A stretch of DNA of 64,000 bases from an uncultured Gammaproteobacteria bacterium (lineage in GTDB: Bacteria > Patescibacteriota > Microgenomatia > Daviesbacterales > UBA10151). Made by a program: the position numbers and the translations under genes. Shown one piece after another: positions 29,709 to 51,328 of this stretch (the first letter of the stretch is position 1; each line of letters opens with the position of its first letter). The DNA lies in the NCBI GenBank assembly GCA_964649615.1, contig CAZYPW010000007.1:8734-72733 (forward strand). Reading direction: 5' to 3'. Below the pieces are notes generated by a model that had not been told where the DNA came from, made no database searches, and was given only the letters and a program-made list of their open reading frames with translations.

Positions 29709-30824
29709 ATGATTAAGACTAATGGTATAACAACATTTACATCAGAATCAGTTTGTGCTGGCCATCCGGATAAAATCTGCGACCAGATTTCTGATGCTAT
29801 TTTAGATGCGGTTTTATCCCAAGATCCTCAAGGCAGAACAGCCATCGAATGTTTGGCTGGAAACAACAGACTGATTATTGCAGGAGAGGTAGGGGCAAAA
29901 GCGAAAGTAGATTTTAAAAAAATTGCCAGAGACCAAATTAAAAGGTTGGGTTACACTGATCCTAAATTTAACTTTTCAGATAAATCCCCTATTGAAGTTT
30001 TTGTCCATGAGCAATCTCCGGAAATTGCAGTGGGAGTAAAGAAAAAAGGTGCAGGTGATCAGGGTATGATGTTTGGATATGCCTGCAGGGAAACAACTGC
30101 TTTAATGCCGCTGCCTATTATGATGGCACACTCTTTGACCAAAAGAATGGATACTGTCAGGGAAGAAAATATTGTCAAATACTTAAGGCCGGATGGAAAG
30201 TCTCAGGTGACTATAGAATATAGAAATGGTAAACCAGATAAAGTATTGCAGGTTGTGATAGCGGTGCCCCATAAAGAAACTGTTAACTTAGATGAAGTGA
30301 GAGAAGATGTCTATAATTTTATAGTTGTGCCGGTTTTGGAAATGTATGGATATAAAATTAAGAAAAAGGATTTAATTGTTAATGGTACAGGAATCTGGCA
30401 CAATGGCGGGCCGGCATCTGATTGCGGTTTAACTGGTAGGAAAATTGTAGTTGATACATATGGAGGATATGCCAGAGTGGGTGGTGGAGCATTTTCCGGG
30501 AAAGAACCGTCAAAAGTGGATAGGGGCGGAGCATATGCTGCCAGATTTTTGGCTAAAAATATTGTGGCAGAGGGTTTAGCAGAAAAAGCAGAAGTGAGAC
30601 TGGCATATTTTATCGGGGCTAAAAAACCCACTATGGAAGATGTGGAAACTTTTGGCACTAACAAAAAGAGCCATAAAGTAATAATCTCTTTTATGAATAA
30701 GATTTTAGATACATCTGTTTCAGGAATTTTGCAGGGATTGGATTTACAAAGACCAATTTATTTACCAACTGCTGCATATGGTCACTTTGGCCGTGAAGAA
30801 TTCCCCTGGGAAAGAATAGTTTAA
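29709..30824 (+). CDS. metK: S-adenosylmethionine synthetase
   Basis: FTSESVCAGHPDKICDQISDAILDA, GAGDQGMMFGYA, GGGAFSGKEPSKVDRGGAY. Confidence 0.95.
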   Translation: MIKTNGITTFTSESVCAGHPDKICDQISDAILDAVLSQDPQGRTAIECLAGNNRLIIAGEVGAKAKVDFKKIARDQIKRLGYTDPKFNFSDKSPIEVFVHEQSPEIAVGVKKKGAGDQGMMFGYACRETTALMPLPIMMAHSLTKRMDTVREENIVKYLRPDGKSQVTIEYRNGKPDKVLQVVIAVPHKETVNLDEVREDVYNFIVVPVLEMYGYKIKKKDLIVNGTGIWHNGGPASDCGLTGRKIVVDTYGGYARVGGGAFSGKEPSKVDRGGAYAARFLAKNIVAEGLAEKAEVRLAYFIGAKKPTMEDVETFGTNKKSHKVIISFMNKILDTSVSGILQGLDLQRPIYLPTAAYGHFGREEFPWERIV

Positions 30825-30888
30825 TTCTTCTGTCATTGCGAGCCCCGAAGGGGCGTGGCAATCTTTATTTTGCTATAATTTCATTTAC

Positions 30889-31458
30889 ATGAGTAATTTT
30901 AAAGACTTTTATCATTATAAAGGCGCTGAGTTAACACCTTCTGAAAAGGTGGAAAGAAAAGTTATAGAAATTTTGCTTAACTCACAACTTCCTGATAGCC
31001 AAAGAGAAAGTTCTATTGTCTGGGAAATAAAACACTCTTCAGGTTGTGTACAAATTGCCAGAGTTTTAGCTCAAAAAAGAAACCTCGATGCTGATATTGC
31101 TGCAACAGCATCACTACTTCATGATATCTATGTAATTGTGGAAGGAAAATATAAAGATCATGCAAAACTCGGTGCACCGATAGCTGAAAAAATTCTGAGA
31201 GAAATAGGTGGATTTTCAGATGGGGAAATAAAAACAATAACTGATGCGGTCGCACACCATAGTGAAAAAGAAGTGTATACGGATAATCCTTATATAGAAA
31301 TAGTTAAAGATGTTGATGTGTTTGACTGCTCATTTTATAAAAATGCTGAAGGGTATTACAGATTACATAAAAGTGGAGAAATTGTTAGAGAGTATGAGAA
31401 TAGAATTAAAAAGGTGAGAGAAGAATTCAATCTGCCTCCTGACCCAATTTTCAGATGA
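30889..31458 (+). CDS. HD-domain phosphohydrolase (YqeK-like)
   Basis: H...LLHDI...H...D metal-binding pattern, ~190 aa. Confidence 0.65.
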   Translation: MSNFKDFYHYKGAELTPSEKVERKVIEILLNSQLPDSQRESSIVWEIKHSSGCVQIARVLAQKRNLDADIAATASLLHDIYVIVEGKYKDHAKLGAPIAEKILREIGGFSDGEIKTITDAVAHHSEKEVYTDNPYIEIVKDVDVFDCSFYKNAEGYYRLHKSGEIVREYENRIKKVREEFNLPPDPIFR

Positions 31459-32897
31459 ATAGTATACCAGATCCAATTTTTAAAAAAGATTTAGATAAAA
31501 TTTCCTGGAAAAAAATTTATGATAGGGAATATGGAGTACAGTATTCTGAAGCAGCTGTATCTCTTTTGGCTTTTGCGAGTTATCATTTTCCTAAAACTTC
31601 CGTTGCACAAGTTATTATCCCCGGAGAAGGTAACAACACCTCATTTTATATTGATGATGTTTCTTGGCTAGAACTGGTAGAAGGTCTTAATAAGAAATAT
31701 ACTGTTAATGTAAAGCAATTAGAGAAATACGAGAGACAATTTTTATTTGATGGAAAAAATTATTTAAAAATTACTAAAAAAGTATCTAAACTCAATTTAA
31801 AAAAATTAACTAACAAACAACTACTTTCCCTATTTTTAGATCACCAGGACAAGAGGAATAAATACTCAGTGTTTGCTTGGTCTGCTTTTATTTTAAATAA
31901 CTATGTAGCAGACAGAGCAGTATCGATTTTAGAGCCTTACATTAAAAAGCATAATTTAGTAAATCAAAAACAGAGAATTATTGACGCTTTGTTTACACCT
32001 GAAAAACATGCGGCAGTATTACAATTACAACAAGAAGTAGAAAAACATAATGGAAAATTAACAAATAAACAGTTCGATACATTGTATGAGAAATTTAACT
32101 GGCTTTCTTGTTTAGATATTCAAAATAAACCCTGGAGTAAAGAGGAATTTAGACAACACATAAAATCATTTACTAAATCAGATAAAACAAACAAAATATC
32201 ATTTAGAGAAATTGTTAAAAAGTTAAAACCCTCAAAGAAAGATTTAGAATATCTCCAAATGGCAAAAAGGTTTGTTTATATAAAGGATGCAAGAGATGAC
32301 TTTAGGCGAGAAAGCGTATTTTATTCAATCAATTTATGGAAAGAAATAGGAAGAAGGATGGGAATTTCAGCAGAAGATACGAGCTATTTACAAGATTCGG
32401 AAATAATAGCCTTTTTGAAAGACAAGAATAATACTGATTTAGACAAAATTTCTCGATCGAGAAAAAATGGTTTTGTAATATATATTGGTTCCAATAAAAA
32501 AGTAATTTGTTCACAAGGAGACCATATACTTGCTGCTCTTAAGTTATTTAAATTAGACTTTGAGGAAGAGAAAACACAAGAGATAAAAGGAAGAGTTGCA
32601 TCAAAAGGGTTGGCGAAAGGTAATGTAGCAATTGTTAAAGGTGTAAAGGATTTGGATAAAGTAAAAATGGGAGATATCTTAATTGCTGTTACTACTCATC
32701 CGGATTATGTTTCGGCTATGAGGAAGGCTGTGGCAATTGTGACGGATGAAGGTGGAATTACATCTCATGCTGCGATAGTTTCCAGAGAATTTGGAATTCC
32801 TTGTATTGTTGGAACAAAACTTGCAACAAAAGTTTTAAGGGATGGAGATATGGTAGAAGTTGATGCTAACAGTGGGGTTGTAAAGAAACTAAATTAA
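31455..32897 (+). CDS. two-domain protein: unknown ~380 aa N-terminal region plus C-terminal PEP-utilising-enzyme swivelling phosphohistidine domain
   Basis: C-terminus GDILIAVTTHPDYVSAMRKAVAIVTDEGGITSHAAIVSREFGIPCIVGT (GGxTSHAAI catalytic His motif). Stop overlaps the next start (TAATG). Confidence 0.65.
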   Translation: MNSIPDPIFKKDLDKISWKKIYDREYGVQYSEAAVSLLAFASYHFPKTSVAQVIIPGEGNNTSFYIDDVSWLELVEGLNKKYTVNVKQLEKYERQFLFDGKNYLKITKKVSKLNLKKLTNKQLLSLFLDHQDKRNKYSVFAWSAFILNNYVADRAVSILEPYIKKHNLVNQKQRIIDALFTPEKHAAVLQLQQEVEKHNGKLTNKQFDTLYEKFNWLSCLDIQNKPWSKEEFRQHIKSFTKSDKTNKISFREIVKKLKPSKKDLEYLQMAKRFVYIKDARDDFRRESVFYSINLWKEIGRRMGISAEDTSYLQDSEIIAFLKDKNNTDLDKISRSRKNGFVIYIGSNKKVICSQGDHILAALKLFKLDFEEEKTQEIKGRVASKGLAKGNVAIVKGVKDLDKVKMGDILIAVTTHPDYVSAMRKAVAIVTDEGGITSHAAIVSREFGIPCIVGTKLATKVLRDGDMVEVDANSGVVKKLN

Positions 32898-33634
32898 TGT
32901 ATATTAAACTTTTTAATGAAATTTCCAAAAATGATGTAAAGGAGGTAGGTGGTAAGGGTGCATCTTTGGGGGAAATGACTAATGCTGGTATCCCAGTCCC
33001 TCCTGGATTTGTAATTACCACAGAAGCTAATGGTGTAATTCATGAAGAAGAAATATTAAAAGCCTTTGATACGCTAAATACTGAAAGAGTTTCTGTTAGG
33101 TCATCAGCAATCGCTGAAGATTCTTTAAGAGCTTCCTGGGCAGGGCAGTTAGAAACTTATTTAAATGTTACAAGAGAAAATCTAATTGAAAGTATTAAAA
33201 AGTGCCGGGAATCAGTAAAATCAGAAAGGGCAAAAACATATGCCAAGGAATATAGGTTATCAGATGATCAACTGGCTATGGCAGTAGTTATACAAAAAAT
33301 GGTCGATGCTAAAGCAGCTGGAGTTATGTTTACTGCTAATCCTGTAACTTCTGATAAAGAAGAAATAATGATTGAATCAGTTTTGGGATTAGGAGAGAAA
33401 CTTGTACAGGGATCAGTTACTCCGGATAACTTTATTGTTGATAAGGGAAGTGTAGATATAAAAAGTAAAGATTTACAAGGAGAGCAAACCATAGCTGATG
33501 AGGTAGTTAAGAAATTAGTAGAACTGGGAAAAAAGATAGAAAAGCACTGGGGAAGCCCACAAGATATAGAGTGGGCAATTGATACAGATAATATGATTTG
33601 GATCCTTCAATCAAGACCGATTACCAATTTGTAA
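32897..33634 (+). CDS. stand-alone PPDK_N-type ATP/nucleotide-binding domain protein (pyruvate phosphate dikinase / PEP synthase / rifampin phosphotransferase N-domain family)
   Basis: VGGKGASLGEM, VRSSAIAEDSLRASWAGQLETYLNV, AVVIQKMVDAKAAGVMFTANPVT, QDIEWAID...ILQSRPIT. Confidence 0.75.
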   Translation: MYIKLFNEISKNDVKEVGGKGASLGEMTNAGIPVPPGFVITTEANGVIHEEEILKAFDTLNTERVSVRSSAIAEDSLRASWAGQLETYLNVTRENLIESIKKCRESVKSERAKTYAKEYRLSDDQLAMAVVIQKMVDAKAAGVMFTANPVTSDKEEIMIESVLGLGEKLVQGSVTPDNFIVDKGSVDIKSKDLQGEQTIADEVVKKLVELGKKIEKHWGSPQDIEWAIDTDNMIWILQSRPITNL

Positions 33635-33670: not shown

Positions 33671-34477
33671 ATGAATAAACCAATTATTACTTTAACTTCT
33701 GATTTTGGAGTACAGAGTCAAGGAGTTGGAAATATGGAAGGGGTAATTGCCCAAATTGCCCCGGATGCCCGGATTATCCATCTAATGCATGGTTTACCCA
33801 GTTTTGATATCAGAGCTGGGGCACGCACCATGGAAGTTATCCAATTTATGCCTGTCGGTTTTCATGTATGTGTAGTTGATCCAGGAGTTGGTACATCCCG
33901 CAAGCCGATAATAATTCAGGTTAAAAGGGGAGATTATTTTATTGGTCCAGATAATGGAGTTTTTATATCTGCAGTTAATATTCTAGGAGGTCCCAAAAAA
34001 GTAGTAGAAATTACCAATCCTAAATTTATGATCCAGCCAGTTTCACCTATTTTTCATGGTAGACATATTTTTGTCCCGGCTGCAGCATATCTTGCTAAAG
34101 GTATCCAGATTGAAGAGTTTGGTTCAAAATTATCCTTTGATCAATTAGCCCCTGCTCCATATACAGAAGCTGTTTTAAGCAAGGGTGTGATAAATGCTGA
34201 AGTAATTAATATCAATAAATTCGGCTCGCTCAACCTTAATATTCTTCATAGTGTTTGGGATCAATTGAATCTTATGCTTGGACAAGTTGTAACAATTACC
34301 TTCAATCATAAAACAATGAAAATGCCTTTTGTAGAAACTTTTGGTCAGGTTAAGCCAGGCGAAGCTTTAGTTTTAAAAGATGATTATGGCAGGGTAGAAG
34401 TGGCCATTAATTTAGGAGATTTTGCCAAAAAATATCAGATTAAAATCGGTGATAAATTTAAATTTAGCAAACTTTAA
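33671..34477 (+). CDS. SAM hydroxide adenosyltransferase / DUF62 (fluorinase-chlorinase-like SAM hydrolase) family protein
   Basis: ITLTSDFG, VVDPGVGTSRK, PDNG, IFHGRHIF, ETFG...GEALVL. Strong match to COG1912-type proteins. Confidence 0.85.
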   Translation: MNKPIITLTSDFGVQSQGVGNMEGVIAQIAPDARIIHLMHGLPSFDIRAGARTMEVIQFMPVGFHVCVVDPGVGTSRKPIIIQVKRGDYFIGPDNGVFISAVNILGGPKKVVEITNPKFMIQPVSPIFHGRHIFVPAAAYLAKGIQIEEFGSKLSFDQLAPAPYTEAVLSKGVINAEVININKFGSLNLNILHSVWDQLNLMLGQVVTITFNHKTMKMPFVETFGQVKPGEALVLKDDYGRVEVAINLGDFAKKYQIKIGDKFKFSKL

Positions 34478-34496: not shown

Positions 34497-34766
34497 TTAT
34501 TTAATCTCAAATTCTGAAAAGTTTTTAAGGGGATCTTTTCTTATTTCTACTTCTTCGACTTTGGCCAAAGTAGGGCTTTTGTGGCACCATGCCAAGAATT
34601 TATTTAAATTTTCCTTTTCCCCTTCAGCTTCTATATAAACAGACCCATCCTTTTCATTTCTGGCAAAACCTTTAATAGATAATTTATCTGCTTGGTCTTT
34701 GGCAGATACTCTAAAAAATACTCCCTGAACTAACCCTGTGACTTTAATATTTAAATGTTTTTTCAT
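34497..34766 (-). CDS. acyP: acylphosphatase
   Basis: VTGLVQGVFFRVSAKDQADKLSIKGFARNEKDGSVYIEAEGE. Confidence 0.85.
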   Translation of the reverse strand: MKKHLNIKVTGLVQGVFFRVSAKDQADKLSIKGFARNEKDGSVYIEAEGEKENLNKFLAWCHKSPTLAKVEEVEIRKDPLKNFSEFEIK

Positions 34767-35554
34767 GTAAAATCCAAAACTAAAGGAAGATGATCAGAAA
34801 CCTCTTCTTCTAAAACCTTAAAATCTTTCAAATTGATATCTGAAGAGATAAAAGCATAATCTGCAAATTTTTGGAAATTTGGGGTTTTAGCATAAGGGCT
34901 TAAGTCACTTCTAGTTCTTGGGATATTATATTCTTTAATTAAATTTCTTAAATTCTCCTCAAATAGATTAATACACCTTGTATTGGGTAAGAGATTAAAG
35001 TCTCCAACAATTATCTTTGATCCAGTTTTAGAATTCATAATTTCTAATACTTTTTTGGTCTCCTTAAATCTATTTGGAGAATCAAGTTTATTAAAAGGAT
35101 ATGCAGTACCATGAAAGTTAAAAACCGAGAATTCTCTACCATCTACACTAAAACTAATATATTGAAGTGGAGTGGCCAGATTAGAAAAATCTGGCTTTAA
35201 AGCTCTAAAAGAATGATCCTGATATATAAAATAATCCTGATGGGAAGTTATTTTAATAGAATCTTTAACAAAAATAGCAGAACCATACTTTAGATCAAAT
35301 TTTACTTTGTGAGGCTTTATATCAGTATCAAATCCTTCTAAAGTTGGAAAGTAAAATACCCTAAATTTTGGTAAAATAATTCTTATTTCCTCAAGTAGAT
35401 TGGTCTGAATACTTTTCTGCAATTTTTTATCAGATTTTGTGGAATATATTTCTTGAAAACAGAAGATATCAGTATCTTTTGACTGATGTTTGATAAACTG
35501 GATTAGTGGTCTATACATTTTCCCACCCCAAGTATTTAGCGAAATAAGCTTCAT
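34763..35554 (-). CDS. endonuclease/exonuclease/phosphatase (EEP) family protein, tandem paralog 1
   Basis: MKLISLNTWGG...DIFCFQEI...GDFN...SDHLPLVLDF. Confidence 0.75.
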   Translation of the reverse strand: MKLISLNTWGGKMYRPLIQFIKHQSKDTDIFCFQEIYSTKSDKKLQKSIQTNLLEEIRIILPKFRVFYFPTLEGFDTDIKPHKVKFDLKYGSAIFVKDSIKITSHQDYFIYQDHSFRALKPDFSNLATPLQYISFSVDGREFSVFNFHGTAYPFNKLDSPNRFKETKKVLEIMNSKTGSKIIVGDFNLLPNTRCINLFEENLRNLIKEYNIPRTRSDLSPYAKTPNFQKFADYAFISSDINLKDFKVLEEEVSDHLPLVLDFT

Positions 35555-35558
35555 AATT

Positions 35559-36338
35559 TTATGAAAACTCCAGAATCATGGGTAGATGATCAGATATCTC
35601 AATATCTGGAACCTGAAATTCTAAAACTTTTACATTAGGGGATACTAAAGTGTAATCTGCAAATTTGTCACCCCAGGTATAAAGCTTACTTCTGGTAGTA
35701 GGAATTTTATTTTCCTTAATTAAATTTATTAAATCTCGTTCTAAAATTTTTAGACTCTTGGTATTTATATTTAAATTAAAATCTCCACATAATATTTTTG
35801 CTTCCTCTTTATATTGAGCCAAAAAGTTAACAACTTTTTCAGACTGGCTAATTCTTGATGAATGATCTACCTTTTTCCCTTTTCTCCATACTCCATGTAA
35901 GTTACAAACGATGAACTTTTTATTTTGGTGGGCGAATGTTATATATTGCATATTTCTTGGTAGGGTATTTAAATCTTTGGGATTAAAACTATCTTTGGTA
36001 CGAAATACAAAAAAATCCCGGTATGAAGTAACTGGTAATTTTTTATTGATAAATATAGCTAACCCCCAGGAAAGATTAAAATTTATAAAATTAGGTTGAA
36101 AACTACCAGCTATGTAATTATCTACACAGGATGCAAAGTATCCTCGGTATTCAGGTAAGATTTTACAAAACTCCTCATACAGATTTAATCTAAAGCCTGC
36201 ACTTTCAGTAATATTAGAAGTTGTTTTAAACACTTCTTGCAGACAAAAAATATCAGTATCTTGTGAGTATTTCTTTATGAAATCCATTAAGGGTTGATAC
36301 ATTCTTCCTCCCCAGGTATTTAGCGCAATAAGCTTCAT
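35559..36338 (-). CDS. endonuclease/exonuclease/phosphatase (EEP) family protein, tandem paralog 2
   Basis: MKLIALNTWGGRMYQPLMDFIKKYSQDTDIFCLQEV...GDFN...SDHLPMILEF. Start set at the internal Met aligned to paralog 1. The ORF-track N-terminal extension is the reverse translation of the tRNA below. Confidence 0.7.
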   Translation of the reverse strand: MKLIALNTWGGRMYQPLMDFIKKYSQDTDIFCLQEVFKTTSNITESAGFRLNLYEEFCKILPEYRGYFASCVDNYIAGSFQPNFINFNLSWGLAIFINKKLPVTSYRDFFVFRTKDSFNPKDLNTLPRNMQYITFAHQNKKFIVCNLHGVWRKGKKVDHSSRISQSEKVVNFLAQYKEEAKILCGDFNLNINTKSLKILERDLINLIKENKIPTTRSKLYTWGDKFADYTLVSPNVKVLEFQVPDIEISDHLPMILEFS

Positions 36339-36379
36339 ACATAGAATTATACTCGAGTAGGTGGTAAAATTTAAGACTA

Positions 36380-36451
36380 CGGAGTGTAGTTCATCGGTAG
36401 AACGCTCGGCTGGGGGTCGAGAAGTAGGAGGTCCAATTCCTCTCACTCCGA
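36380..36451 (+). tRNA. tRNA-Pro (anticodon GGG)
   Basis: Hand-folded cloverleaf. 7-bp acceptor with C1:G72 and A73 (bacterial tRNA-Pro identity elements). U8, D-arm GUUC/GAAC with G18G19. Anticodon loop C-U33-GGG-G37-G. T-stem GGAGG/CCUCU. T-loop UCCAAUU (C at position 55). No encoded CCA. Confidence 0.7.
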
Positions 36452-36545
36452 CTTTTGTTATGTATATCCATGTATCCATACATAAATACACTAAGTAATT
36501 TTTGGGGTATTGACACCTTTGGGATATATTTGGTAATTTTAATTT

Positions 36546-38969
36546 ATGGCACAAACTTCAAATAACAACGAAGCTAAAAAAGCTGCAATTTCTGCTGCTA
36601 TGGCCCAGATTCAAAAAACTTACGGGACTGGTTCTATTATGAGGCTTGGTGAAAGAGCGGAAAAAATGACCACCCAGGTGATCTCCACAGGTTCTATTGC
36701 TTTGGATTTGGCGCTGGGAGTGGGAGGTCTTCCCAAAGGCAGGATTATTGAGGTTTATGGGCCTGAGGCGGGAGGAAAATGTGTTTCAACAGATACTATT
36801 GTTTTTACAGAACATGGAATGTTACCTATTGGTGTTTTCGGTGATTTATTTAAACCAGGCTTTCAAAAAAAGAATTTAAGCATATATTCTGAAGGTGGAA
36901 CTGCTACAACAAGCCACTTCTATAATAGTGGTTTTAAAAAAACTATTAAGATAAAAACTGCGTATGGTTATGAATTAGAGGCAACGCCTAATCATAGAAT
37001 TAGAATTATAGATAAAAAAGGTGACTACGTTTTTAGACGTTTAGATAAGTTGAAAGAAGGTGATCGGGTCGCTATACAGAGAGGCCAGGGGTATTTTGGT
37101 CAAGGTGTAAATTTATCTAATTTCAGATATATATTATCAAGGTACAATAACGGAAAGGAGTATGATGCTCCTTTAACAATTGATTCTCAGTTAGCGAAGT
37201 TAATGGGATATTTAGTTGGTGATGGCACATGTACATTAACAGGTTTGAGTAAAAATACTATTAGCATAACTATTGCCGATGACGAAGTAGCAGCAGATTT
37301 TATAGAAGTTTGTCTAAATATATTTGGTGAAGAACCAAAGGTGACTTTAGATAAACGTAGTAAAAATACTAAACAGTTTCGTATCCATAACGCCAAAGCT
37401 CGTTCATTTTTAGCCTATTGCGGTTTAGATTATAACTCCGCCGCAGATAAGCATATTCCTTACTCAATTATGCAGTCACCAAAACCGGTTGTAACCTCTT
37501 TTTTATCAGCTATATTTGAAACAGATGGGTGTTTCGTAACTAATACTATCGAATACTGTTCCAAATCAAAGGTTCTGGTTAGACAGATCCAGACTGTGCT
37601 ATTAAATTTTGGGATTATATCTAGGTTAAAAACTAGGATAGTAAGCGATAAGGAATACTTTTATCTTTACATTGATGGGCGTAACGATTTAGAGATATTT
37701 GCTCAAAATATTGGTTTTATTTCAATTAGAAAACAAAATAAATTACTGTCTTATACAGAAAAAAAAGTTAGTCAATATCAAAGTAATTGTGATACTTTAC
37801 CTATAAATAGAAAGATCCAGCAGTTAATGATAGATTATCGTAAAGGTGTAGGTACTACTACCAGAGAACACTGGGATGTAGTGTATGACTATCTACCTCA
37901 AACATCAGGATTTTCTATGCTGACATATCCACGCCTTAATAAAATATTAAAGACGTTTATTTCGGCTCAAACATTGGCAATTTACCAACACCTAAAGGAA
38001 ATATACTCAAAAAATATCTTTTATGACAGAATTGTCCGTATCTCTCCCTCTAAGTCAGTGGTAGTAGATTTTACTGTACCTTCTACAGCCTCCTTTTTTG
38101 GTAATGGATTTATTAATCATAATACTAGCATTTGCTTACATGTTATTGCAGAGGCTCAAAAAAAGGGTGGGGTGGCAGCTTTTATAGATGCAGAGCATGC
38201 GCTAGACCCACAAAGGGCCCAAAAAATTGGGGTGAACTTAGATGATCTTTTAATTTCCCAGCCTGATACAGGGGAGCAGGCCTTAGAAATTGCGGAGAGC
38301 CTCATACGCTCCGGGGGGATTGATGTTTTAGTGATAGATTCTGTAGCGGCATTGGTTCCCAGAGCTGAACTGGAAGGTGAGATGGGTGATGCGGTTATGG
38401 GGATGCAAGCCCGTTTAATGTCGCAAGCATTACGTAAGCTGACAGGAGCTGTTTCTAATACAAACACAATCATTATTTTTACAAATCAGCTGCGTCAAAA
38501 AATTGGGGTAATGTTTGGAAATCCGGAAACAACAACAGGGGGATTAGCTCTTAAGTTTTATTCATCAATAAGACTGGACGTCAGGAAAATTGAGAATATA
38601 AAGTCTGGTGATATGGTGGTGGGCTCAAGGCATAGAGTTAAAGTGGTTAAAAACAAAGTGGCTCCCCCATTTAGAATTGCAGAATTTGATATGGATGAAA
38701 ATGGAATTATTCATGAAGGAGAGATTTTGGATGTTGGTATAGAATTGGGGATTTTAACCAAGTCCGGAGCATTTTTAAAATGGGGAGAGAATATGTTAGG
38801 ACAAGGTAGAACTGCAGCTATAGATTATTTAAAGGCTAATAAAAAAGAAGCGGAAAAATTAGAGAAAGAAATAAGGGAAGCTTGGGGCAAACAAAAGGAA
38901 GGCAAAGAGAAAATAGTAGTAGGACCGCAAGAAGAAGAGGGCGCAGGAACCGTAGAAGAAGCCGTATAA
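36546..38969 (+). CDS. recA: recombinase RecA precursor containing a 448-aa intein (mature extein about 359 aa)
   Basis: Extein [30 protein letters not shown] | intein | [29 protein letters not shown]... L2 loop and C-terminal domain intact. Confidence 0.92.
36780..38123 (+). mobile_element. intein with LAGLIDADG homing-endonuclease domain inserted in the RecA Walker A P-loop
   Basis: Starts with Cys after GGK. Block B TPNHRI. LAGLIDADG-like motifs [10 protein letters not shown] and [12 protein letters not shown]. Ends ...NGFINHN followed by +1 Thr. In-frame with the extein. Confidence 0.85.
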
Positions 38970-50952: not shown

Positions 50953-51328
50953 GGTGCCTAGGAAGCGAGTAAGCCAGATTCTGTTTTAGATGATATTTAT
51001 CTTCAGTGTGATTATTAGTCACTCTGATCCGCCTTATGGCGAGATGCTCCTTACTTTGATTATCAAGCGAGCAGCTTAATCAATTCTAGGATTGCAGCAG
51101 GGAGGATTGCCCTTCGACTCGCTTCGCTCACTCAGGGTTATAACCCTGAGTATTTGAAACTAATCGAAAACCCGTTAGCTTGGTCGTTTCATTCGGCGCA
51201 ACCCGATTCGTCACTGTTGCTCTAAACTTTGTCTTACGACCATCCGCCTTTCGGCGGACACCTTGCTCTATGCTGTCTGGACTTTCCTCTCCGCCAAAGG
51301 CGGAGTAATCATCCTTCTTCCTAGGCTT
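50953..51328 (-). ncRNA. rnpB: RNase P RNA (bacterial type A)
   Basis: The reverse complement carries a 10-bp P1 (GCCUAGGAAG/CUUCCUAGGC), P3 hairpin CUCCGCCUUUGGCGGAG, P4 5' strand GAGGAAAGUCCAGAC, CAUAGAGCAAGGUG, and P4 3' strand ACAGAAUCUGGCUUA. Confidence 0.85.

Follow-up and report, generated by a model that had tools for sequence, protein, structure and literature searches.

Likely two-component small-molecule dikinase with a conserved HD-domain partner in a Daviesbacteria genome

The 64,000-nucleotide stretch of contig CAZYPW010000007.1 analyzed here (the window) comes from the tiny genome of a member of the Daviesbacteria, in the Microgenomates lineage of the Candidate Phyla Radiation (CPR), and its list of open reading frames (ORFs) includes a cassette of three genes on the forward strand. 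The predicted products are an HD-domain phosphohydrolase (the HD gene, positions 30889..31458, 189 aa), a substrate-binding and phosphohistidine-carrier component (gene 1, 31455..32897, 480 aa) and a compact stand-alone ATP-grasp, or PPDK_N, component (gene 2, 32897..33634, 245 aa). We think it likely that the cassette encodes a two-component, ATP-dependent small-molecule dikinase of the type known from rifampin phosphotransferase (RPH), PpsAB and HpeHI, because of its domain content, its fused relatives, an intact invariant motif, the published mechanism of homologues and the linkage to the HD gene. The two-protein dikinase architecture is already known; unreported are the conserved HD partner, an ATP-grasp gene that is shared or unlinked, and the restriction to ultra-small genomes. 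A literature search for an HD gene plus a phosphoenolpyruvate (PEP)-utilizer module in CPR bacteria or DPANN archaea returned nothing relevant.

Gene 2 is matched by the Pfam domain PPDK_N (PF01326, E 7.5e-73) and aligns to residues 5-53, 149-281 and 312-362 of PEP synthase 8a8e (E 6e-59), retaining the motifs GGKGA, VRSSA..ED, QKMV, DIEWA and QSRPIT. Its matches include more than 120 stand-alone ATP-grasp proteins with lengths of 237-284 aa, and a similar number of full-length gene 1 homologues (>120, ~478 aa) were found at 53-75% identity. In gene 1, Pfam places the PEP-utilizers domain (PF00391) at residues 404-474 with E 7.6e-26, within a swivelling phosphohistidine domain that spans residues 376-480 (32580..32894, +) and has its best PDB sequence match in the same PEP synthase, 8a8e (E 6.9e-29). 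The predicted catalytic residue, His438 (codon CAT, 32766..32768, +), lies in the motif TDEGGITSHAAIVSREFG (32742-32795, +), where T430-D-E-G-G-I-T-S-H438 fits the pattern T/S-x-x-G-G-x-x-x-H defined in PMC12167813. T430, G433, G434 and H438 are invariant in 36 of the 36 sequences of alignment A1, and a Thr stands at position -2 relative to His438. These assignments bear out the preliminary description of this locus, which had recognized a swivelling phosphohistidine domain in gene 1, a stand-alone PPDK_N protein in gene 2 and the TAATG overlap between them.

For residues 1-370 of gene 1 (31455..32564, +), no domain was matched in Pfam, and a PDB search with a 10-sequence profile of this region gave no meaningful match. 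An AlphaFold2 model of gene 1 built from 36 homologues is confident (pLDDT 90.2, pTM 0.85), and the best structural match for the whole protein is RPH (PDB 5fbt, 5hv1), at 14-16% identity. About 290 residues of the mostly helical N-terminal part superpose on the rifampin-binding domain of RPH, with ~100 further superposed residues belonging to the His domain, and the NCBIfam RPH-like PRK06241 models align from gene 1 residue 246 or 305 on, upstream of the His domain. Judged by the alignment, the predicted model and its structural match, the N-terminal region is an RPH-type substrate-binding domain and not a new fold. It had earlier been proposed to be a novel substrate-binding module; the modeled fold is RPH-like.

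Rifamycins or phenolics are the substrates of all characterized proteins that share this substrate-domain fold, which favors an alternative in which the same dikinase chemistry would detoxify or scavenge a hydrophobic xenobiotic, either an antibiotic as with RPH or a phenolic as with PpsAB and HpeHI, with no link to nucleotides. Partial matches from the NCBIfam RPH and prodigiosin-ligase models point the same way, but their scores are far under the family cut-offs: the RPH model NF041857 reaches 69.6 bits with gene 1 and 203.9 bits with gene 2 against a cut-off of 999. The substrate domain also lacks sequence similarity to known members. The residues of this domain that are invariant in A1 (among them R24, Y26, Y30, H44, W142, N148, W216, C219, D221 and N224, followed by K277, D278, R280, D281, D282, R284, R285, R301 and R336) are rich in Arg, Lys, Asp, Trp and Tyr, with Arg, Lys and Asp predominating, as in the stretch K277-D-A-R-D-D-F-R-R285. 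From its composition such a set seems a poor fit to a rifamycin or phenol pocket, and the pocket residues differ from those of RPH in being polar and charged. The cassette is moreover housekeeping-like, being kept across minimal CPR and DPANN genomes with its HD partner and with nucleotide-metabolism neighbors, and we regard a xenobiotic role as unlikely.

By sequence, the ATP-grasp and the swivel His domain are both closest to PEP synthase and pyruvate, phosphate dikinase (PPDK), with which they share dikinase chemistry through a pyrophospho-His intermediate. One could accordingly propose that the two genes are an ordinary PEP synthase or PPDK in pieces, serving gluconeogenesis or glycolysis, since the best sequence matches of the two domains are PEP synthases. 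The genes nevertheless differ from these enzymes in their domain order, in being separate and in the absence of a PEP/pyruvate TIM-barrel domain, which was looked for in and next to the pair and was not found in gene 1, gene 2, the five flanking genes or the Pfam-scanned ORFs of the compared loci (most locus ORFs were classified against window sequences only). The PEP_synth models score 119-237 bits against cut-offs of 598-740, and the N-terminal domain matches RPH instead of PEP synthase. A split PEP synthase is very unlikely on these grounds, in line with the preliminary description.

The dikinase reading is favored by the fused relatives. A profile of the gene 1 N-terminal domain retrieved 1216 cluster representatives among 1.84 billion (E ≤ 1e-3), 99 of them at ≤ 1e-30. 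Most matches are two-domain proteins of about 450-480 aa, and gene 1-type proteins are annotated just as 'PEP-utilizing enzyme' or 'hypothetical'. Of the best 150 matches, about a dozen are 730-860 aa long, with the match beginning near residue 280-325. All four scanned proteins carrying an ATP-grasp domain (P0123, P0126, P0134 and P0240) consist of PPDK_N, a gene-1-like domain and PEP-utilizers, so that the survey for fusions in other lineages suggested earlier does yield fused forms, in the order ATP-grasp, substrate domain, His. This is the three-domain order of RPH-Lm (PDB 5fbt, 5hv1), which is a single polypeptide in contrast to the two genes here. Residues 7-288 of P0123 are 41% identical to gene 2, and residues 284-752 are 44% identical to gene 1. 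Because its junction ARPITTLGLKKPVWRKI joins the end of one to the start of the other, aligning with the C-terminus of gene 2 (SRPITNL-stop) and the N-terminus of gene 1 (DPIFKKDLDKISWKKI), the gene order in the window is permuted relative to its own fused relatives and does not result from a frameshift. Other variants include tandem double modules (P0253 and P0264) and a gene-1-like module with a C-terminal NUDIX fusion (P0149, L085:4692-6575). At that locus the family-type HD gene is not adjacent to the module-NUDIX fusion, and the NUDIX domain may stand in for HD.

The boundaries between the three genes are tight. The TGA stop of the HD gene overlaps the ATG of gene 1 as ATGA, and the gene 1/gene 2 junction, aaattaatgtat, contains a TAATG overlap in which one base is common to the TAA of gene 1 (32895-32897) and the ATG of gene 2 (32897-32899). 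Because of these overlaps, the three genes are read as one unit that is predicted to be translationally coupled. A sequencing or assembly frameshift in a fused gene, or the decay of such a gene into a pseudogene, would account for the presence of fused relatives and would find a parallel in one Levybacteria ortholog (L009) that appears truncated. However, the His module here precedes the ATP-grasp, opposite to the order in the fused form, both ORFs run to full length, and overlaps of the ATGA and TAATG kind are typical of coupled genes. The two separate forms each have more than 100 homologues, conserved in more than 100 independent assemblies. We consider this explanation extremely improbable; the preliminary description had already dismissed it from the reversed order.

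Known systems provide a close architectural parallel. The two-component small-molecule dikinase subfamily, defined in a 2025 Journal of Biological Chemistry paper, comprises HpeHI, CreHI and phenylphosphate synthase PpsAB, in which one protein corresponds to the RPH ATP-grasp domain and the other to the RPH substrate-binding and swivel domains (PMC12167813). The split and permuted layout, described at first as unusual, is thus standard in PpsAB, CreHI and HpeHI (PMC12167813, PMC6114531). PpsABC has adjacent genes for alpha (His/substrate), beta (ATP) and gamma, the last coding for a small accessory subunit that stimulates the reaction in a way not yet understood (PMC6114531). The cassette shares with PpsAB, CreHI and HpeHI a separate ATP-grasp protein, a helical substrate domain with a C-terminal swivel His, the location of the substrate/His (alpha/H) and ATP-grasp (beta/I) proteins on separate adjacent genes (pps-alpha and pps-beta in that system) and the T/S-x-x-G-G-x-x-x-H motif, and with PpsABC the presence of a small accessory third protein (PMC12167813, PMC6114531). 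There are also clear differences. The substrate domain here is ~370 aa in a 480-aa protein, compared with PpsA and HpeH of 70-71 kDa, and the ATP-grasp protein is compact, at 245 aa versus about 40 kDa. The gamma subunit of PpsABC is AcuB-like, a CBS-domain protein, whereas the accessory protein here is an HD hydrolase. Position -2 of the motif is Thr, as in PEP synthase, where PpsAB, CreHI and HpeHI have Met; the ATP-grasp gene is often unlinked or common to several modules; and the hosts, members of the CPR and DPANN, offer no context of aromatic catabolism. The NCBIfam PRK08296 models, whose PpsA-like identity is assumed, match gene 1 only at residues 370-479, in the His domain. With a substrate domain whose sequence shows no detectable similarity to those of PpsA, CreH and HpeH, the gene 1 family falls in a separate clade, although the architecture is still common to all. 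Alpha-glucan water dikinase (GWD) of plants and algae has a substrate-binding region, a His domain and a C-terminal ATP domain in one polypeptide with carbohydrate-binding modules. Its linear order equals that of gene 1 then gene 2, but there are two genes here, and the Pfam GWD1_pHisD model does not match gene 1.

In the mechanism reported for the subfamily, the ATP-grasp protein presents ATP, whose beta-phosphate is attacked by the swivel His; this His is thereby pyrophosphorylated, after which the gamma-phosphate is hydrolyzed and His~P phosphorylates the substrate (PMC12167813). By analogy, the gene 2 protein would bind ATP, and His438 in the swivel domain of gene 1 would attack the beta-phosphate and become pyrophosphorylated, with the gamma-phosphate leaving as Pi. 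Moving to the helical N-terminal domain of gene 1, the swivel domain would then deliver the phosphate that is left to a small molecule X bound there, for a net reaction of ATP + X + H2O -> AMP + Pi + X-P. Phosphotransfer from ATP through His to a small molecule, as the preliminary description had predicted, is the best reading of the pair when the characterized enzymes are taken as a guide.

To place the cassette in its genomic context, we collected 77 loci from scans of GTDB species genomes and JGI metagenomes, leaving 54 after collapse at 90% identity, of which 45 had enough flanking sequence for neighbor counts. Their source lineages are Levyi-, Davies-, Gottesman- and Roizmanbacteria and, within DPANN, Micrarchaeia, Diapherotrites, and Woese- and Nanoarchaeia. 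An HD gene lies immediately upstream of the gene 1 homologue in 35 of the 45 loci, DPANN archaea included, and is thus the most conserved partner, although it was absent from the preliminary description. An ATP-grasp gene is adjacent or fused in 9 of the 45; the taxon-labeled loci with an adjacent one are all from CPR bacteria, mostly closer relatives of the window. Five contexts, the window among them, were sampled starting from ATP-grasp genes. Two of them (L086 and L087) are cassettes of an HD gene, a 439- or 440-aa module and an ATP-grasp gene. A third (L083:1-4834, Levybacteria JACOXT010000003.1) has an HD gene, three differing swivel-His modules (439, 465 and 355 aa) and a single ATP-grasp gene, and in another (L082) an orphan ATP-grasp gene adjoins rpsO/pnp. 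Because of the orphan copy, the cassettes with other modules and the three-module array, the ATP-grasp protein probably acts in trans and can serve several modules.

Some individual loci have further features. Downstream of the three-module array are genes for PfkB, RpiB and glycerate kinase. On a Levybacteria chromosome (L003:4036-5382, and L005), a 448-aa swivel-His protein with an unrelated N-terminal region is encoded directly upstream of the HD gene, gene 1 and the ATP-grasp gene. The truncated ortholog mentioned above (L009, L046 and L080; about 5001-7488 in L009, Levybacteria RIFCSPLOWO2_02_FULL_37_18) ends at ~316 aa without a His domain and is followed in L009 by a 515-aa ORF containing PurC, which could reflect decay, fusion or an assembly issue.

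The HD gene product has the HD fold and the H...HD...D metal-ligand motif, with H49, H78-D79, H91, H124 and D141 invariant in a narrow family of 334 database matches. By structure comparison its fold is nearest to hydrolases of the type of YpgQ, an NTP pyrophosphohydrolase, and YqeK, an Ap4A hydrolase; its sequence similarity to 2pq7 is marginal (profile E 1e-5). The HD partner shares the fold and the H..HD..H..H..D metal ligands of these small nucleotide pyrophosphohydrolases, but its family is narrow and specifically linked to His-module genes. HD proteins encoded beside the 439-aa paralogous modules are 62-70% identical to that of the window, the same level found beside true gene 1 orthologs, including one from a Micrarchaeia archaeon (60%). 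Between the 439-aa modules and gene 1, overall identity is only 30-33%, and we estimate ~26% in the substrate domain. Because the HD sequence is conserved whatever the module type, the HD protein would be expected to act on a constant part of the system and not on the variable substrate; we infer that candidate targets are the carrier in its phospho- or pyrophospho-His form, or else an adenine nucleotide. An anti-phage defense role was also considered and rejected, as the PADLOC defense models give no support: gene 1 and gene 2 have no match, and the HD protein has only marginal Cas3-HD matches (E 0.004 and 0.008).

The difference between HD linkage (35 of 45 loci) and ATP-grasp linkage (9 of 45) would also be expected of a phosphorelay or regulatory device, in which the HD protein, or some other protein, either receives phosphate from the swivel His or resets that His, and in which ATP-grasp is not the obligatory donor in most genomes. 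The conservation of the HD sequence across module types agrees with such a device, as does the Thr at -2, a regulatory site in PEP synthase and PPDK that is kept here. Set against this, the ATP-grasp domain is covalently joined in the fused relatives, and cassettes of HD, module and ATP-grasp recur. The module has a large conserved helical domain with a polar pocket that resembles the small-molecule site of RPH, and this fold is without a protein-substrate precedent. A phosphorelay is therefore, in our judgment, improbable, to about the same degree as the xenobiotic role, and we retain the small-molecule dikinase as the preferred reading.

For the identity of X, the pocket residues, which are charged and aromatic, and the neighboring genes give some indication. 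The 140 proteins encoded no more than two genes away from the module belong most often to the Pfam families SAICAR synthetase (5), AIR carboxylase (4) and Glycos_transf_3 (4). The order PurE-HD-gene 1-PurC occurs in five non-redundant loci, the labeled members of which are Levyibacteria. In DPANN loci the module is followed by an AMP phosphorylase gene (TIGR03327, 567.7 bits against a cut-off of 535), and a related phosphorylase adjoins the module in one Gottesmanbacteria locus. The archaeal AMP-recycling pathway begins with AMP phosphorylase, and dikinase chemistry yields AMP. Because of the PurE/PurC and AMP phosphorylase neighbors, the NUDIX fusion and the YpgQ/YqeK-like HD fold, the evidence points weakly to a nucleoside, nucleotide or ribose-phosphate compound.

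A broader proposal, which we consider doubtful, if somewhat less so than the xenobiotic and phosphorelay alternatives, can be built on these observations. The cassettes of HD gene, His module and ATP-grasp gene would constitute a modular phosphorylation system specific to CPR and DPANN organisms and resembling the phosphotransferase system (PTS). One ATP-grasp 'charger' would pyrophosphorylate several swivel-His modules with their own substrate domains, and the dedicated HD hydrolase would process or reset the (pyro)phospho-His carrier. The substrates would be nucleoside, nucleotide or ribose-phosphate salvage intermediates, and the system would replace kinases missing from the reduced genomes.

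Several points weigh against the dikinase reading or its extension to nucleotides. In 36 of the 45 loci there is no ATP-grasp gene within 5-6 kb of the module. The substrate domain of gene 1 has no sequence-detectable similarity to PpsA, HpeH or RPH; the proposed homology of this domain would depend on the predicted structure and on NCBIfam matches reaching only 70-130 residues upstream of the His domain. A kinase and a phosphohydrolase could be a futile pair if both act on one compound. The nucleotide-metabolism neighbors are lineage-restricted, with PurE/PurC in loci labeled Levyibacteria and AMP phosphorylase in a few DPANN loci and the one from Gottesmanbacteria.

Characterized two-component RPH-like dikinases have so far been confined to aromatic catabolism, while the clade described here is kept in minimal genomes of CPR bacteria and DPANN archaea, which lack many of the kinases one would expect. 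Identifying its substrate could close a gap in the reconstructed nucleotide or ribose salvage pathways of these organisms. Work on the HD partner could show how pyrophospho-His is handled and what role an accessory subunit such as PpsC has in this enzyme class. One ATP-grasp protein serving several modules would, if true, be a new organizational principle for dikinases.

Within the window, the cassette is flanked by metK, encoding S-adenosylmethionine (SAM) synthetase (29709-30824, +), and by an (R)-SAM hydrolase-like SAM_HAT gene (33671-34477, +), which jointly would turn ATP and Met into adenosine and Met. The link to the SAM pathway drawn in the preliminary description does not extend beyond the closest related loci: outside the window, synteny with metK recurs only in L011 (Daviesbacteria) and the unlabeled metagenome loci L036 and L050, and among the loci compared the SAM hydrolase neighbor is seen in the window only. 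An acylphosphatase gene (34497-34766, -) is convergent with the SAM hydrolase gene. A search of the 64-kb window gave no other PPDK_N, PEP-utilizers or HD paralogues.

Direct reading of the spacer between metK and the HD gene reveals a tentative metK terminator at 30835..30871 (+), an imperfect hairpin of the form ATTGC..CCCC GAA GGGG..GCAAT followed by CTTTATTTT. This hairpin was not reported by a consensus promoter and terminator scan, in which counts were at background level. A TATAAT hexamer (30874..30879, +), -10-like and 9 nt before the HD start codon, could speculatively be a candidate promoter of the operon, the leader then being very short or absent. The hairpin with its T-run and the hexamer weakly suggest a separate transcription unit.

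Elsewhere in the window, recA (36546-38969, +) is interrupted by an intein with a LAGLIDADG-type homing endonuclease domain, with Pfam RecA matched in two stretches together with Intein_splicing and LAGLIDADG_3. Two tandem paralogous Exo_endo_phos genes occupy 34763-35554 and 35559-36338 on the reverse strand. Because a longer, TTG-started ORF of the second (35559..36554) overlaps tRNA-Pro(GGG) at 36380-36452, translation probably begins at Met73. A bacterial class A RNase P RNA is located at 50954-51324 (-), with 108.5 bits against a gathering score of 100. Nearly all of the window has a positive GC skew, and the forward strand carries most of its genes, consistent with a segment of a single leading-strand replichore.

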